This document shows positions 3,441 through 9,133 of a stretch of 64,000 nucleotides of DNA, piece by piece. Within the stretch, counting starts at the first letter, position 1; every line of letters starts with the position of its first letter. Below the pieces are notes generated by a model. That model did no database searches and was not told the DNA's origin. It was given only the letters and a program-made list of their open reading frames with translations. This DNA comes from Escherichia coli (GTDB lineage Bacteria > Pseudomonadota > Gammaproteobacteria > Enterobacterales > Enterobacteriaceae). The DNA lies in NCBI GenBank assembly GCA_002099625.1, contig GCA_002099625.1_4857.1; one strand, 5' to 3'. The position numbers and the translations under genes are program-made.

Positions 3441-4574
3441 TTACTTGCCGATGATATCGCGGACCATTGCTTTGATTGTGGCAGCGGTACGTTTCTTTTT
3501 CGGCAGCTTGCGGATTTCTGCGTACAGTTTATCCAGGTTCAGCGTTTTCTGTACCTGCGCAACAATCTGCATTTGCTCTTCGTCGATCTTCACTTCGACG
3601 GTTTGTTCCTGCATTTTGCCCAGTTCCTGAATCACACTGGAAACCGATACCGGATAAGCTGTTGATTTTGGACGTTCGATACCGAGGGTGACAAAGATTT
3701 CGTCGTCAATAAACACATTTTCGATATCAACCAAGTTTTCCAGAATGATTTCATCGTGGCCTTCATCTTCCGACGCATTCGGGTATGGACGTTTGTAGGT
3801 GTAATCCCACACGTCATAACCGAGTTTATCTGCGAGTTGTACGAAACCTTCCCAGGTTACTTCGCCGGGGTTGATAGTCTGACCACGGAAACCGGGGTTG
3901 GCCGTAAAGACTTTCACCCAGTCGATGTTCGCGATGTTACGGCACTCTTCCAGCGGCGCGTAACGATCTCCCACTTCGTCATTGTCAGTCTCTTCAACAT
4001 GCTCTGCTTCACAACGCTCGAAAGTAACTGAGTGTGGTTTACCGTCACCGAAGATAACGGAGGCAGCACGCCAGTCTTCGATAGTCCACTGGACATGAGT
4101 CAATTCAATGTAACAATGCCCAACCTTAGCACGGCCCTGTGGGGCACTTACTGGTTTAATCAACTCACCTGGTTCGAAGAAGAATCCGTCAGAATGTGCA
4201 ATGGCATACCAGACACCATCAACACCTTCAACGAGAATAGACCAGTTATAAGGCGCGTGGCAATTTTGGAAAGCTACGCCCAGCATACTTCCCCAACGGT
4301 CATCTGGCGAATATTTCAGTGGCGGCAGGTTATCAAACTGAAGAGTTTGAGAAGAAAGGCACAACTTATTACGCAGGTGCGGCAGCGGCAGATAAGCCTC
4401 CACATTGTTATCGACCAGCGCATTGTAAAGATCCGGGTTGATAACACCGGTGCCAGTGACGTGTTGTGCAATCAGAGCTTCTGAATATGCACGAATACCC
4501 TCGTAGCTAAGCACATACGCACGGTCACGTACTACACGAGCCATATCTTCGATTACGGAAATTGGAAATTGCAT
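3441..4574 (-). CDS. hypothetical protein (377 aa from internal ATG)
   Basis: Track ORF 3441..4598 begins with a non-ATG codon; ATG at Met9 (MQFPISV...) has AAGGAC RBS; long acidic protein of unknown function. Confidence 0.65.
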   Translation of the reverse strand: MQFPISVIEDMARVVRDRAYVLSYEGIRAYSEALIAQHVTGTGVINPDLYNALVDNNVEAYLPLPHLRNKLCLSSQTLQFDNLPPLKYSPDDRWGSMLGVAFQNCHAPYNWSILVEGVDGVWYAIAHSDGFFFEPGELIKPVSAPQGRAKVGHCYIELTHVQWTIEDWRAASVIFGDGKPHSVTFERCEAEHVEETDNDEVGDRYAPLEECRNIANIDWVKVFTANPGFRGQTINPGEVTWEGFVQLADKLGYDVWDYTYKRPYPNASEDEGHDEIILENLVDIENVFIDDEIFVTLGIERPKSTAYPVSVSSVIQELGKMQEQTVEVKIDEEQMQIVAQVQKTLNLDKLYAEIRKLPKKKRTAATIKAMVRDIIGK

Positions 4575-4952: not shown

Positions 4953-5546
4953 TTACGCTTCGGCCTCAAAGAACGGCTGGTTCGGTACCACTGCATATTC
5001 GAGCACGAAAAGATGTTCTGGGGCATCTTCTGCTCGCCACAGTTTGTGGCACGTTGCCAGTTTTTCCAGGATGGTCAACCAGCTGAGCTGGCAGAAAGCA
5101 CGATCGCCGAAGAACAGTTTCTGCAGTGCAATCGACACATCCATATACGCCTGTTTGAAGTCGAGTTCTTTATCGTAACCCGCCGACTGTCGCCACGTCA
5201 GCACGAAGCCTGCTTCGGTTTCGTTAATTGCTGGACGTAAACCACAAATCCACATCAGCGCCAGATTAACGTTCCAGTCGAATTCGATACCTTCGTCTTC
5301 GTCATCACCAAACGCCGCGTTTAACGCGTCGTAGAAACCGTGGTTCTCTGCGAACCATTCGCCGTACTCAACGTAGACAGGTGCTTCGACAGCTTCCCCA
5401 TCGGCTTCACCGATAGGACGCTCAACGTAGTTCGGATTGGTTTGAACGTGTTCCGCACCCGCGCGAATCAGTTCGTAAACGTCTTTGGCGGTGATTTGTG
5501 CGGCTGTTTTAAGACCTGGATACCAGGGGCGTGTTACGAGTGTCAA
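4953..5546 (-). CDS. hypothetical acidic protein (197 aa)
   Basis: ORF with AAAGGAG RBS 6 nt before a probable TTG start; overlaps stop of upstream gene by 4 nt. Confidence 0.55.
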   Translation of the reverse strand: MTLVTRPWYPGLKTAAQITAKDVYELIRAGAEHVQTNPNYVERPIGEADGEAVEAPVYVEYGEWFAENHGFYDALNAAFGDDEDEGIEFDWNVNLALMWICGLRPAINETEAGFVLTWRQSAGYDKELDFKQAYMDVSIALQKLFFGDRAFCQLSWLTILEKLATCHKLWRAEDAPEHLFVLEYAVVPNQPFFEAEA

Positions 5547-6265
5547 AGCAATGCTCCTTTCATGATAGTGTTATTTGCCAGTAATGTACCGGCCGCAGGT
5601 GATATTTTGGTGTACAGCGTATCCCAGATTTTCTGAAGTTCGGCGACGCGTTGGTCGTGGTCTTCCTTCGCAAAAGCAAGCTGACGTGTTTCAGCTTTCG
5701 GTGGTGTCATTTTCGCACCGTAGAATGCTGCGTCTTTTCGGTAGCTGGCCATCCAGCGTTTCCCGACCGGTGATTTCTTTTTAATCATCGCAACAGCAGC
5801 ACCCTCACCGAAGCGGTAGCCTAAAGCGATTTCGGCTGTGCTCGGCTTGCGTTTGAGTTGTTTTGTCAGATGATCCTCGATGTGTTTCATGTAAACGGCA
5901 GCAAGCTGTACAGCATACTTCGGTTTATTAAGGTCCGCATTCTTTGGGATGTTAAGTTGTTTCCCATACAGACGTATCATGGAGCGTTTAGTGCCTGTCG
6001 TCATTTGGACAACACTACTAGCACTGCTCGATTTATTCTTACCCACGTTTTTATTAAAACGGGATTCACGATAAATGGTGGTCGCGAGCATCCCGGCATG
6101 TACGCCTTGTTTTCGAGATGCGGTGACGATGAGAGGTTTAATCTCATTGAACTGGTCCTGGATAAGGACGAATTCTTTTTGGTGTTTGTTACTGGTGGTC
6201 TGGTAAGAAGCGTTGCTGTTGAACGTAGTCATTGCTACCAGAAGAAATAAAATGGTGCGAAACAT
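5543..6265 (-). CDS. secreted lytic transglycosylase-like protein (SLT-domain candidate)
   Basis: Signal-peptide-like N-terminus MFRTILFLLVAMTTFNSNA; motif IYRESRFN resembling the SLT catalytic E-S-x-F/W-N block; GGAGA RBS. Confidence 0.5.
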   Translation of the reverse strand: MFRTILFLLVAMTTFNSNASYQTTSNKHQKEFVLIQDQFNEIKPLIVTASRKQGVHAGMLATTIYRESRFNKNVGKNKSSSASSVVQMTTGTKRSMIRLYGKQLNIPKNADLNKPKYAVQLAAVYMKHIEDHLTKQLKRKPSTAEIALGYRFGEGAAVAMIKKKSPVGKRWMASYRKDAAFYGAKMTPPKAETRQLAFAKEDHDQRVAELQKIWDTLYTKISPAAGTLLANNTIMKGALL

Positions 6266-6364
6266 GGATGTATCTCCAAACGGATTTATACTTTTCCGTT
6301 CCCAATCCGGGAAGACGGCGCGGACGGCATTGTGCTCCTTTGTAATGTGCCCTGATGATAATAT

Positions 6365-6865
6365 CTATTTGAAACTATTTGGGATGATTTTCTCTGCTTC
6401 CTTTAGCAGTGTGTCCGGTAAATAGAATCGATAAGTCTGCTCCGTGTGTTGTAGTCGTTTCTGTAAGTGTATAAAGATTTCCAATCGCTCATGGTAACGT
6501 AACCAACCGTTAGCCATCCCTAGGGGCGGTATCGCAATCCCTCCTTCTAAGTCTTCCCCTAGTCGCGCCAGCGCATCAATGCCGGACGTGACATAGTAAA
6601 TCTGCGATTTATAGCGAAAATGGGTTTTAGTAGGAAGGAGTATTACCCCTTCCTCAGGATAACAATAGACCTCACCGATAACGATTTGCTCTTTACGACA
6701 TTTCTGGCGATAGTCATTATAAAGCGATGGGAAGCGTTCTCGGCACGCCAAAGCAATGCCCCTTCCCATTGCACCAACACAGTTAACTGTAACGACCTTG
6801 AAGCGCTCAGGCGCGTTAAACAAGTCGTGGGAGATAACGGCCTCGTCGATCAGTTCGAGTGACAT
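6365..6865 (-). CDS. macro-domain-like protein (candidate ADP-ribose binding/hydrolase)
   Basis: 166 aa; KVVTVNCVGAMGRGIALA resembles the macro-domain V-N-A-A-N...G-G-G-V block; assignment by eye only. Confidence 0.4.
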   Translation of the reverse strand: MSLELIDEAVISHDLFNAPERFKVVTVNCVGAMGRGIALACRERFPSLYNDYRQKCRKEQIVIGEVYCYPEEGVILLPTKTHFRYKSQIYYVTSGIDALARLGEDLEGGIAIPPLGMANGWLRYHERLEIFIHLQKRLQHTEQTYRFYLPDTLLKEAEKIIPNSFK

Positions 6866-7064
6866 CTATTGCCATACCCCATTGTGAAATAACCGGAGAC
6901 TGAAGCAACGATTCCAGCTCAGTAAGAACTCTGGCTTTTGCTTCTTCGCGCAACTTACGGACTTCCGGGTCAGGTTTTCCTGCGCCCAAATATTGGGGTT
7001 CTGTTTGTGGGGTAGGGAAGCCACAGAAAGAACCAACCGTTATTCCGATGATTGTTTTTTGCAT
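6816..7064 (-). CDS. hypothetical small protein (82 aa)
   Basis: Start abuts stop of upstream gene with AAGGAA RBS; 3' end overlaps macro-like gene by ~50 nt. Confidence 0.4.
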   Translation of the reverse strand: MQKTIIGITVGSFCGFPTPQTEPQYLGAGKPDPEVRKLREEAKARVLTELESLLQSPVISQWGMAIDVTRTDRRGRYLPRLV

Positions 7065-7487
7065 TTAGCTATTCCTTTTCACCCAGGCTTGTACCGCTGA
7101 CTCGAAACCTTCGTGTTCGATACCGAGTCGTTTCATTGCCAACATAGTGTTGAGGCTATTCGTAATTTCTTCACGGTAGCGATGGTCGTCCATCTTACGC
7201 CAACACTTCTCCGGGTCAACACCTAGGCGTTGGAGTAGATACGCCTCACGCACCATACCAGGCCGCCAGAACTTAGGACGGGTAATCGCAATTTCAATCA
7301 TCGGCGTCATGTCCAATGTGTGCGCGAGAATACTAACCGGCGTTTCCCCAACTTTATCACGTAGCGCTAAACGTAACCACCACTGAACATTTGCTTTGGT
7401 TTCAGGTAACAGGTCGTAGAATAAGGCTGTTTCTTCTTCTGATAAATGATCGTATAGTGATTTTGTTTCGCGAATAGCGGTAACCAT
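7065..7487 (-). CDS. hypothetical protein (140 aa)
   Basis: ORF in same-strand packed operon. Confidence 0.6.
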   Translation of the reverse strand: MVTAIRETKSLYDHLSEEETALFYDLLPETKANVQWWLRLALRDKVGETPVSILAHTLDMTPMIEIAITRPKFWRPGMVREAYLLQRLGVDPEKCWRKMDDHRYREEITNSLNTMLAMKRLGIEHEGFESAVQAWVKRNS

Positions 7488-7498
7488 TTTAATGCTCC

Positions 7499-7762
7499 TT
7501 AGGGTAAAGTTGCCTCCCAGTCGTGGTGGTGAGGCTCAGGCAGCGTACCAAGCGCTGCTTTAATACACGTACTCAGCGGAGTATCATCGAACGCAACACG
7601 CCCGATAGTACCCACGTTGATGTGTTTAGGATTTACGGGTAAGAACTCCTTCACCCGCTCGTACTCAGCCCAACAGACATCGGTGTTTAAAGCTGAAAAC
7701 CCAGGACGGTGAAACATAAATAGCACTCCTCGCGTAAAAATACCCCACTCATAGTGAGGCAT
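7499..7762 (-). CDS. hypothetical protein (87 aa)
   Basis: ORF in packed minus-strand operon. Confidence 0.5.
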   Translation of the reverse strand: MPHYEWGIFTRGVLFMFHRPGFSALNTDVCWAEYERVKEFLPVNPKHINVGTIGRVAFDDTPLSTCIKAALGTLPEPHHHDWEATLP

Positions 7763-7787
7763 AATCGTAAGGAGTGCTAAAACAGGA

Positions 7788-8303
7788 CTATGCTACCGCA
7801 GTCCTTAAAGGTTCATCTGCTTCCGCAGGAACCTGCTTCTTAAATTCAAGCCATTGTCCGTCTGTAGAGACGGTCTTGTCAAAACCGCGAGCGGTAAAGA
7901 ACGCAATACCAGCTTCCTGGCAAGCGTATATTCCCCCATGCGCACTGGTGAACTGTTCATTCACATCAAGCGCATCAAAAATCTGCGTCATCGTTTTACG
8001 ACGGCGTGCCATTTCAGACACGAACATCGTACGAATCTTCAGAACCCCAGCGATTACGCGATACAAACAGTAACCAACAGGGGTGCCCCCTTCCAGAGCA
8101 ACGCAAGCACGGTTCCCCGCCAACAGTTTCTCCAGAGTGAGGTTCGGAATCTCACCTTTTTCGATATGGAGTATGGTACGTTGGTGGTTCAGAAATTTAT
8201 AATGCAGCCCCAACAGCTGTTTATTTTGTGCTTCCGTTAAATCTGAAGATGAGGAAAGAATGACAATTTCGGCCATGAGCTGAATTCCTAAGTGAGCTTT
8301 CAC
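7788..8303 (-). CDS. hypothetical protein (171 aa; possibly starts at Met10, 8276)
   Basis: Minus ORF consistent with operon direction; first codon appears to be GTG; internal ATG at Met10 has AGGAA RBS. Confidence 0.55.
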   Translation of the reverse strand: MKAHLGIQLMAEIVILSSSSDLTEAQNKQLLGLHYKFLNHQRTILHIEKGEIPNLTLEKLLAGNRACVALEGGTPVGYCLYRVIAGVLKIRTMFVSEMARRRKTMTQIFDALDVNEQFTSAHGGIYACQEAGIAFFTARGFDKTVSTDGQWLEFKKQVPAEADEPLRTAVA

Positions 8304-8422
8304 CTGCGATGAAAGCGAGTAACGAAGAATTGCGTTTGTGTTTTCTTAAGTTTACCGGTAAAGCTTAGCGGTGTATACCGCTGCAGGTAAAGACCAGTTC
8401 TCTATCGGAACCGTGTCTTTAA

Positions 8423-8701
8423 TCAGCAACGTCGTTGAAAACGTCGCGATGCTGAGGTAACCTTCCGTCGCCACATTCGCTCATGGCGCTTCTGATTACC
8501 ACGCCAGTCTTCCCCGACTGTGCGTGAAACTGCAAAATCGTCCGGCCCGCAGACTTCCGCGATGTCTGCTAGAAGGTTCTTTGAAGACCCTATAGCCATC
8601 CCCACGCTCGAAAGAACGATACGCCGGGTTGGCTCGGCCGCCCCTGAACCCACGACCACGGGATCAGAGACTGTTTCACTGTCACATGATACTTCTCCCA
8701 C
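8423..8701 (-). CDS. hypothetical small protein (92 aa)
   Basis: GGAGGG RBS ~10 nt upstream of probable GTG start; basic C-terminus. Confidence 0.35.
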   Translation of the reverse strand: MGEVSCDSETVSDPVVVGSGAAEPTRRIVLSSVGMAIGSSKNLLADIAEVCGPDDFAVSRTVGEDWRGNQKRHERMWRRKVTSASRRFQRRC

Positions 8702-8929
8702 TTCGTAATTACCCTCCTGTTAAAACCAACCTTGCGTCAATGCAAGGATTGCGCCTAGGGCGTATGCGCCTGCTCCTAGTACCAGGCTACAGATGATACA
8801 CCCAACCCACTTCACTAAAATAACCATGATGCCAGAAATGCTCCGATTGCACAGATGATAATCGTAATGCCAAGGTCTGTCCAGGTGGTACCATCATACG
8901 CACCTGTTGCAATCATGGCTGCGTTGACA

Positions 8930-9133
8930 CTATTCACGACTGTCATAAGCCGGGTCCCTTAAACGCGGGGGCTTGCTCCACAGATTACCGAAGTAAACCC
9001 CTTCTAAGAACACCAAAACAACTAAGCCCCAGAAGGCAGGCGTGGCACGAGACAAGAAAATGCCCATCAGCACTACAGTGTGCATTACCACAACTGCCCA
9101 AAACTTTAAACGACCCGGTTTACGTGTTGCCAT
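8930..9133 (-). CDS. small membrane protein (67 aa from internal ATG)
   Basis: Track ORF 8930..9178 begins GTG; Met16 ATG has AAGGA RBS; two hydrophobic helices (FWAVVVMHTVVLMGIFL, FWGLVVLVFLEGVYF). Confidence 0.45.
   Translation of the reverse strand: MATRKPGRLKFWAVVVMHTVVLMGIFLSRATPAFWGLVVLVFLEGVYFGNLWSKPPRLRDPAYDSRE

Follow-up and report, generated by a model that had tools for sequence, protein, structure and literature searches.

Background

The macrodomain of the antitoxin DarG suffices by itself to counteract the toxin DarT, and the C-terminal domain of DarG contributes sequestration of the toxin (PMC5179494). A phage counterpart, AdfM (anti-DarT factor macro), was described as PhiKZ gp104, PhiPA3 gp108, Goslar gp83 and Asesino gp217 (Morgan et al., Cell Rep 2026, PMC13309987), and about half of the chimalliviruses carry it (PMC13309987). 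PhiKZ gp104 removes the ADP-ribose that DarT2 adds to a TNTC single-stranded DNA (ssDNA) oligonucleotide, rescues E. coli from DarT2 toxicity and protects the phage from DarTG2, and AdfM deletion mutants on DarTG2 hosts show a loss of titre, ADP-ribosylated phage DNA and empty capsids (PMC13309987). The AdfM proteins of PhiKZ, PhiPA3 and Erwinia phage Asesino localise to the phage nucleus, with the import of PhiKZ gp104 depending on PicA (PMC13309987). Macro domains in general are carried by ~56% of jumbo phages (PMC9503650). Here we analyzed a gene located at positions 6365–6865 of a stretch of 64,000 nucleotides (nt) from contig GCA_002099625.1_4857.1 of the Escherichia coli assembly GCA_002099625.1 (hereafter the window, to which all positions refer), which a preliminary description had singled out by eye as a candidate macro-domain gene. 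Very probably, it encodes an orphan antitoxin-like DNA ADP-ribosylglycohydrolase, i.e., an AdfM ortholog that consists of a stand-alone DarG2-type macrodomain.

The gene is a minus-strand open reading frame (ORF) of 166 amino acids (aa) with an ATG start at 6865 (coding positions 6368–6865, TAG stop 6365–6367), and its product shares 98.2% aa identity with YP_009153490.1 of phage SPN3US. The latter is annotated as a ‘macro domain-containing protein’ in RefSeq (ACQ60_gp070) and as a ‘hypothetical protein’ in GenBank (SPN3US_0196), and the labels ‘phosphatase’, ‘Appr-1-p processing protein’ and ‘protein-ADP-ribosylation protein’ are found in other records. The region 5000–9000 is 97–99% identical at the DNA level to ~30 SPN3US-like jumbo phages of Salmonella, E. 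coli and Proteus, by which the window can be assigned to an SPN3US-like Salmonella jumbo phage (Seoulvirus). A diverged homologue of chimallin (gp244) and a matching lattice mark SPN3US as a nucleus-forming chimallivirus (PMC9365700); through the identity with SPN3US-like genomes and gp244 of SPN3US, the phage of the window would be a chimallivirus as well. Across at least five genera, dozens of genomes carry the macrodomain ORF intact and at full length.

A macrodomain of the DarG subtype

The macro-domain call of the preliminary description was borne out by DarG models, by the DarG macrodomains of the PDB and by the predicted fold, all of which agree. The Pfam check that it had proposed gave a match to PF01661 (profile positions 2–105 of 118) that was present but borderline, reaching 21.7 bits (E = 2e-4) where the gathering score is 22; precomputed PF01661 matches exist for several homologs that are 60–65% identical to the window protein. 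Pfam alone was therefore discarded as the test because of this borderline value, and the question was settled by DarG-specific models together with PDB sequence, profile and fold searches. The sole NCBIfam family matched was antitoxin_DarG (NF048014, E = 7e-31), the PADLOC DarG model gave E = 3.5e-32, and PHROG 335 (labelled ‘phosphatase’) gave 1e-29. A single-sequence phmmer search against the PDB retrieved the DarG macrodomains of M. tuberculosis (1.9e-20) and T. aquaticus (8.7e-19). An alignment of 57 homologs (28–83% identity to the query) was used both as a family profile and as input for AlphaFold2. With this profile, M. tuberculosis DarG (3.6e-55), T. aquaticus DarG (9.9e-52) and a Thermosipho DarTG fusion (2.8e-35) were recovered far ahead of TARG1 (~1e-11) and of the alphavirus nsP3, Poa1p and SCO6735 macrodomains (~1e-5 or worse).

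The AlphaFold2 model (predicted local distance difference test 93, predicted template modelling score 0.89) comprises six strands and five helices and shows the three-layer alpha/beta/alpha sandwich, with a central mixed beta sheet, that the preliminary description had set as a condition for a macrodomain; the nearest structure is that of DarG. Foldseek placed T. aquaticus DarG (TaqDarG, 5m3e/5m31; template modelling score 0.76/0.83, root-mean-square deviation 2.2 Å) on top of the PDB matches, followed by M. tuberculosis DarG (MtbDarG, 5m3i), T. africanus DarTG (7omu), and then by TARG1, viral and other macrodomains. A total of 182 PDB matches was obtained at E ≤ 0.001, and the top 50 listed consist of macrodomains and of engineered proteins with macrodomain-like scaffolds. 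The window protein is thus a macrodomain of the DarG subtype, for which the DarG models, the PDB and profile searches and the fold search were decisive.

Conservation of the active site

Structural and mutational data allow the pocket to be compared residue by residue (Table 1). The ADP-ribose contacts of TaqDarG are N8, L9, T20, N22, V31, Q34, T79, G117, G119, N120 and G121 (Jankevicius et al. 2016, PMC5179494); K80A inactivates this enzyme, and N22A, K29E and G119E impair it (PMC5179494). In PhiKZ AdfM, N23 and K78 are termed the active site, and N23A lowers the activity (PMC13309987). N28 of the window protein aligns with this N23, and K80, the catalytic lysine, aligns with PhiKZ AdfM K78 and TARG1 K84 in addition to TaqDarG K80. 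The block from which the preliminary description had recognised the domain is identical, codon by codon, to residues 24–38, which form the end of a beta strand and the first ADP-ribose-binding loop; T26, N28, G31, M33, G34, G36 and A38 of this block are invariant in the 57 homologs. In the second loop G116 and G120 are invariant, and P113, P114 and L115 nearly so. Both glycine-rich loops, GAMGRG (31–36) and PPLGMANG (113–120), are conserved in the homologs and align with the DarG loops that hydrogen-bond ADP-ribose. As to the Lys+Asp dyad of TARG1/OARD1 (K84, D125), the lysine is kept and the aspartate was not found in the alignment, the D125 position being occupied in the whole family by the invariant G120, as in DarG.

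Beyond the last strand, the model has an extra C-terminal helix that reaches past the ends of the PhiKZ and PhiPA3 AdfM proteins, which stop ~8 residues sooner in the alignment. The aligned DarG sequences are fragments to about residue 127 and are uninformative on this helix, and the last ~6 residues of the window protein have low model confidence.

Table 1. Positions of the features discussed in the text, and counterparts of TaqDarG pocket residues in the window protein
Feature	Position in window	Strand	Description
adfM-like gene (SPN3US_0196 / ACQ60_gp070 ortholog)	6365..6865	minus	166-aa stand-alone DarG2-type macrodomain
VVTVNCVGAMGRGIA, residues 24–38	6752..6796	minus	end of beta strand and ADP-ribose-binding loop 1; T26, N28 (N28 codon 6782–6784)
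P78-T79-K80 motif	6626..6634	minus	K80 codon 6626–6628; T79 and K80 invariant in 57 homologs
PPLGMANGWL, residues 113–122	6500..6529	minus	diphosphate-binding loop 2
C-terminal residues ~146–166	6368..6430	minus	last beta strand 145–149 and extra helix 151–160 (AlphaFold2 model)
D14 (TaqDarG N8)			Asp in MtbDarG too
L15 (TaqDarG L9)			
T26 (TaqDarG T20), N28 (TaqDarG N22)			
R35 (TaqDarG K29), I37 (TaqDarG V31)			
A40 (TaqDarG Q34)			
T79 (TaqDarG T79), K80 (TaqDarG K80), H82 (TaqDarG H82)			H82 and F83 follow K80
F83 (TaqDarG W83)			
G116 (TaqDarG G117), N119 (TaqDarG N120), G120 (TaqDarG G121)			
A118 (TaqDarG G119)			Ala likewise in active PhiKZ AdfM
W121 (TaqDarG G122)			
Upstream 82-aa ORF (SPN3US_0195)	6816..7064	minus	final 50 nt overlap start of macrodomain gene, out of frame
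Intergenic spacer	6266-6364	minus	~100 nt, from macrodomain stop to transglycosylase ATG (6265)
Lytic transglycosylase gene	5543-6265	minus	SLT domain; ‘putative endolysin’ in some records
GNAT acetyltransferase gene	7788-8303	minus	weak Pfam matches (E ~3e-4)
SPN3US_0197 (ACQ60_gp069)	~6224-6355	plus	43 aa; opposite strand; 4224–4355 in SPN3US locus L001

Orthology with AdfM

The window protein is 70.5% identical to Asesino gp217 (YP_009290835.1) over 100% coverage, and the gene order SMC protein, acetyltransferase, macrodomain protein, SLT transglycosylase and virion structural protein is common to the window genome type and Asesino. It matched exactly one locus each in PhiKZ (gp104), PhiPA3 (gp108) and Goslar (gp83), and in the reverse search PhiKZ gp104 matched exactly the macrodomain locus in SPN3US-like genomes. 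In a crude neighbour-joining tree of eight chimallivirus and 40 bacterial sequences, the eight phage proteins were placed together in 39 of the 50 bootstraps. By raw score, the SPN3US-type proteins reach 82 bits with PhiKZ AdfM and a median of 87 bits (best 99) with bacterial DarG macrodomains.

Stand-alone DarG-like macrodomains were also encountered in E. coli phages of ~54–78 kb (e.g., SU10, MN03 and EcoN5), with proteins that are ~41–42% identical to PhiKZ AdfM and hence closer to it than the SPN3US-type protein. As these phages are far too small for chimalliviruses, AdfM-like orphan antitoxins are not confined to nucleus-forming phages.

An antitoxin domain without its toxin

For the comparison with cellular DarTG systems, the 80 best relatives were considered (contigs from one genome per species, 31–43% identical to the window protein). 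The macrodomain ORF is at least 280 aa long in 71 of them, consistent with the two-domain architecture of DarG, and a toxin gene is directly adjacent in 72 (iterated DarT profile); all six toxin neighbours that were sampled, three for each gene order, carry Pfam PF14487 (‘ssDNA thymidine ADP-ribosyltransferase DarT’). Two layouts occur among these systems, one with darT followed by a darG of ~340–430 aa, and the other with a macrodomain protein of ~290–330 aa followed by a DarT-domain protein of ~340 aa (e.g., loci L014, L017, L029, L035, L036, L067 and L072). About six cellular macrodomain ORFs are short (146–166 aa), and the DarT profile found none nearby (e.g., loci L032, L044, L057 and L089).

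The window protein aligns with positions 7–154 of the 338 in the DarG model and ends at residue 166, and its NF048014 score of 107.7 bits compares with an equivalog cutoff of 250. No C-terminal DarT-binding domain is present in the 166 aa, full-length DarG having ~330–380 aa. A DarT profile search of 754 ORF segments from the window gave no match at E ≤ 10, and no SPN3US-like phage record was matched when the phage collection was screened with DarT2 by tblastn. Since both the C-terminal domain and a darT gene are missing, the gene can be described, from sequence comparison, as a DarG macrodomain that has neither toxin partner nor toxin-binding domain, i.e., an orphan antitoxin-like enzyme.

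The sole match of the DarT2 tblastn search in the whole phage collection was Thermus phage phiMa (MH673674.1, 26364–26957), in which a protein annotated as hypothetical is a DarT2 homolog (39.7% identity, 97% coverage, E = 1e-33); this phage bears the toxin rather than the antidote.

Proposed function and alternative explanations

The model outlined below builds on the ORF and its fold, the DarG-type active site, the orthology and synteny with AdfM, the lack of C-terminal domain and darT, and the relatives that encode DarG beside DarT, all of which were observed here; the enzymatic activity of the window ortholog, its thymidine-linked ADP-ribose substrate, its nuclear localisation and the protection against DarTG2 are inferred by analogy. 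In an infected DarTG2 host, DarT2 would move ADP-ribose from NAD+ to thymidines in single-stranded phage DNA, and this modification would block phage replication and packaging. The phage macrodomain would grip the ADP-ribose moiety via its loops GAMGRG and PPLGMANG, K80 would cleave the bond between thymidine and ribose with N28 positioning the substrate, and unmodified DNA would be restored. As it has no C-terminal DarT-binding domain, the protein would act enzymatically only, without sequestration of the toxin, and because the phage is placed among the nucleus-forming chimalliviruses, the enzyme would probably be imported into the phage nucleus, the site of DNA replication, in analogy to Asesino AdfM. 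By the same kind of analogy, its substrate would be DNA and not protein. A DarTG2 threat exists in the host range, given the functional DarTG of enteropathogenic E. coli (EPEC), which modifies TTT/TCT, and the DarT2 homologs found on Escherichia, Citrobacter and Klebsiella replicons. The suggestion in the preliminary description that the protein could reverse host defence based on ADP-ribosylation gains support via the orthology with AdfM, as PhiKZ AdfM reverses DarT2 marks, and its second suggestion, the processing of NAD-derived signals, found no support in any analysis run.

Several points weigh against this assignment. The Pfam Macro score lies slightly below its gathering threshold, and the raw scores of the window protein with bacterial DarGs and with PhiKZ AdfM are similar, so that a single descent of all ‘AdfM’ proteins would lean on the crude neighbour-joining tree. 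The AdfM proteins of PhiKZ and PhiPA3, the sole source of enzymology and protection data, are only 30–35% identical to the window protein, and the experiment nearest to its clade is the one that placed the 70%-identical Asesino protein in the phage nucleus. The DarTG2 threat is known here from Escherichia, Citrobacter and Klebsiella, and for the Salmonella strains that the phage infects it is presumed. Finally, the pocket differs from that of TaqDarG at four positions (Q34 to A40, G119 to A118, G122 to W121 and W83 to F83), and together with the extra C-terminal helix these differences mean that the substrate preference could differ as well.

This last point leads to the question of whether the macrodomain of the Seoulvirus/Erskinevirus type may be functionally unlike PhiKZ AdfM and retargeted, either to enterobacterial DarT variants (TTT/TCT) or to another nucleic-acid substrate, as could be suspected from a tryptophan (W121) in the diphosphate loop, a phenylalanine (F83) where base stacking has been proposed, the extra helix and the DarG-level raw score; its expression might then be coupled to the overlapping upstream ORF and the downstream hairpin element described below. 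We consider such a retargeted enzyme unlikely. Quite unlikely, too, is a different nucleic-acid target or a broader specificity (RNA ADP-ribosylation or guanine-linked ADP-ribose), with a DarG-derived enzyme directed against another host defence based on an ADP-ribosyltransferase (ART). The same residues would speak for it (W121 where DarG and PhiKZ AdfM have Gly, F83 instead of W83) along with the helix, the function of the clade is predicted from sequence comparison, and further nucleic-acid ADP-ribosylation systems and macrodomains that reverse such marks are beginning to be reported. Yet all catalytic residues and most ADP-ribose contacts are DarG-like, the nearest cellular relatives are overwhelmingly DarGs encoded beside a Pfam DarT, a thymidine ssDNA ART, and the reversal of guanine-linked ADP-ribose in DarTG1 is achieved by NADAR domains and not by macrodomains (PMC11825919).

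That the protein would instead remove ADP-ribose from proteins in the manner of TARG1, clearing marks set by an ART that belongs to a host defence or is encoded by a phage, is very unlikely: TARG1 is second only to DarG in structure and sequence, has the catalytic lysine in common and would fit the ‘protein-ADP-ribosylation protein’ label of some records, but the family profile separates the two widely (1e-55 for DarG, 1e-11 for TARG1), the second catalytic residue of TARG1 (D125) is replaced by the invariant glycine typical of DarG, and DarG2-type macrodomains are exclusively DNA-active according to the AdfM authors (PMC13309987). The labels are likewise what would favour a housekeeping enzyme of ADP-ribose metabolism (an ADP-ribose-1''-phosphate phosphatase, an O-acetyl-ADP-ribose deacetylase or a degrader of NAD-derived immune signals), as PHROG 335 and many GenBank records read ‘phosphatase’ or ‘Appr-1-p processing protein’ and a weak N-terminal match to Poa1p was seen. 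However, these labels derive from the generic macro-domain name, the Poa1p match covers only residues ~5–59 (profile E = 3e-5, ~50 orders weaker than DarG), the NCBIfam models of MacroD/YmdB type gave no match even at E ≤ 10, and the scan of the immediate neighbours showed no gene for the synthesis or use of such metabolites, which leaves this explanation highly improbable. Scarcely credible is a non-catalytic reader or sponge of ADP-ribose, or a decaying gene without current function; macrodomains that purely bind are possible and the PhiKZ gene is dispensable on most hosts (PMC13309987), but neither the catalytic N and K nor the two loops vary among the 57 homologs, whose identities span 28–83%, and the ORF is kept at full length in the dozens of genomes mentioned above. 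The ranking of the matches, the difference between G120 and D125, and the genomic context in which the relatives occur disfavour all four of these alternatives to an AdfM-type enzyme, namely another nucleic-acid target, protein de-ADP-ribosylation, housekeeping metabolism and loss of catalysis.

Overlapping upstream ORF and start of the gene

The preliminary description had noted an overlap of ~50 nt with the upstream neighbour, and the overlap with the ORF at 6816..7064 (SPN3US_0195) proved to be exactly 50 nt. Its product had no match in a Pfam scan and is 43% identical to its Asesino counterpart (E = 7e-15). The upstream frame stays open for 82–126 codons and stops at +50 from the macrodomain ATG in six genomes spanning two genera (the window, SPN3US, SPAsTU, pEa_SNUABM_29, Asesino and Stratton); the overlap measures 20 nt in ChrisDB, and there is none in Kwan and Derbicus. 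This conservation makes it probable that the upstream ORF is a genuine gene, and the 50-nt overlap may be a sign of translational coupling; it has no effect on the domain assignment. The ORF is left uncalled in the GenBank annotations of SPAsTU and Asesino.

Two alternative arrangements were rejected. An upstream ORF at 6866..7036 (minus strand, TTG start) would abut the ATG, and its frame is closed in Asesino, Stratton and pEa_SNUABM_29. An internal start of the macrodomain gene would avoid the overlap; the start cannot be shifted downstream, as the sequence MSLELIDEAVIS at the N-terminus is conserved and PhiKZ AdfM, in the alignment, begins just five residues further in.

Downstream spacer and regional variation

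The macrodomain gene has as its neighbours the gene of the SLT transglycosylase and small ORFs for which Pfam gave no match, and the adjacency of macrodomain and transglycosylase genes is kept in all nine related genomes examined. The spacer between the two genes is unusually conserved over four genera (Seoulvirus, Erskinevirus, Machinavirus and Wellingtonvirus) and has the order GGGCAC..ACA.AGGAG, GTCCGCGCCG, a hairpin, CGGAAAAG-TATAAAT and a ribosome-binding site. The hairpin was found at the same place in seven of seven sequences folded singly, with weak z-scores; its outer stem CCG/CGG is fixed, and the inner stem varies (UCCC/GGGA, UUCUC/GAGAA, UUCU/GGAA, CUC/GAG and CGAA/UUCG). RNAalifold run on a MAFFT alignment gave weak to modest covariation support for the hairpin. 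Recurrence of the conserved motifs was sought elsewhere in the window and none was found, by which a repeated promoter or terminator motif was ruled out. An Rfam scan of 6000–7200 gave no credible match, and in scans for sigma-70 promoters and terminators around the gene, no candidate that fits its strand exceeded the expectation from shuffled sequence. The element may be a phage promoter or a 5'-untranslated-region element of the transglycosylase gene. SPN3US_0197, which lies on the opposite strand across this element and the first part of the transglycosylase gene, is probably a spurious gene call.

Further upstream, Seoulvirus genomes differ by an indel at window positions ~7500–7540 (38 nt in the window, 551 nt in SPN3US, L001 5500–6050). 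The window is without SPN3US_0193 (172 aa), and an 87-aa ORF (7499..7762) replaces the 69-aa SPN3US_0192. The phages SPLA and SPFM are like the window, and the insertion is found in SPN3US, phage 1252, EC001 and others.

Significance

The macrodomain gene as such is already known, both through its RefSeq annotation and through the 2026 characterisation of the family, which included a 70%-identical ortholog; a literature search on SPN3US gp196 returned nothing relevant. The residual novelty would lie in the pocket differences of the clade (W121, F83 and the extra C-terminal helix). If the assignment is correct, the AdfM counter-defence is present in an SPN3US-like Salmonella jumbo phage, in line with the recent view that the phage nucleus alone protects the DNA incompletely. 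The practical value is modest: the labels ‘phosphatase’, ‘Appr-1-p processing’ and ‘protein-ADP-ribosylation’ are misleading and could be replaced by ‘DarG-like DNA ADP-ribosylglycohydrolase (AdfM)’. It is also predicted that SPN3US-like phages, which are candidates for the biocontrol of Salmonella and E. coli, should plate on hosts carrying DarTG2.

Comparison with known systems

Two other phage-borne, antitoxin-like factors act against DarTG and differ from the window protein in lacking a macrodomain. AdfN, an orphan antitoxin against DarTG1, has a NADAR fold and removes the ADP-ribose made by DarT1 (PMC11825919), and AdfB (ICP1 Gp145), which mimics an antitoxin, inhibits DarT probably by direct interaction (PMC11481870). 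Human TARG1/OARD1 (4J5R/4J5S) belongs to the same macrodomain subclass and has its catalytic lysine at the same position, but it is only ~16% identical, the window family has Gly in place of its D125, and its substrate is protein-linked ADP-ribose. DarG itself (T. aquaticus, M. tuberculosis and EPEC; 5M31/5M3E/5M3I; NF048014) is the best match in sequence and structure and shares the ADP-ribose contacts and the catalytic lysine, whereas its C-terminal DarT-binding domain of ~170–200 aa and the partner darT are absent from the window locus; being phage-encoded, the window protein would serve counter-defence, and not as the antitoxin of a toxin of its own. The closest system is AdfM, which is likewise a stand-alone DarG2-type macrodomain of ~160 aa from a chimallivirus with the same catalytic Asn and Lys, and from which the window protein is set apart by W121, F83, the extra C-terminal helix and a neighbourhood unlike that of PhiKZ.

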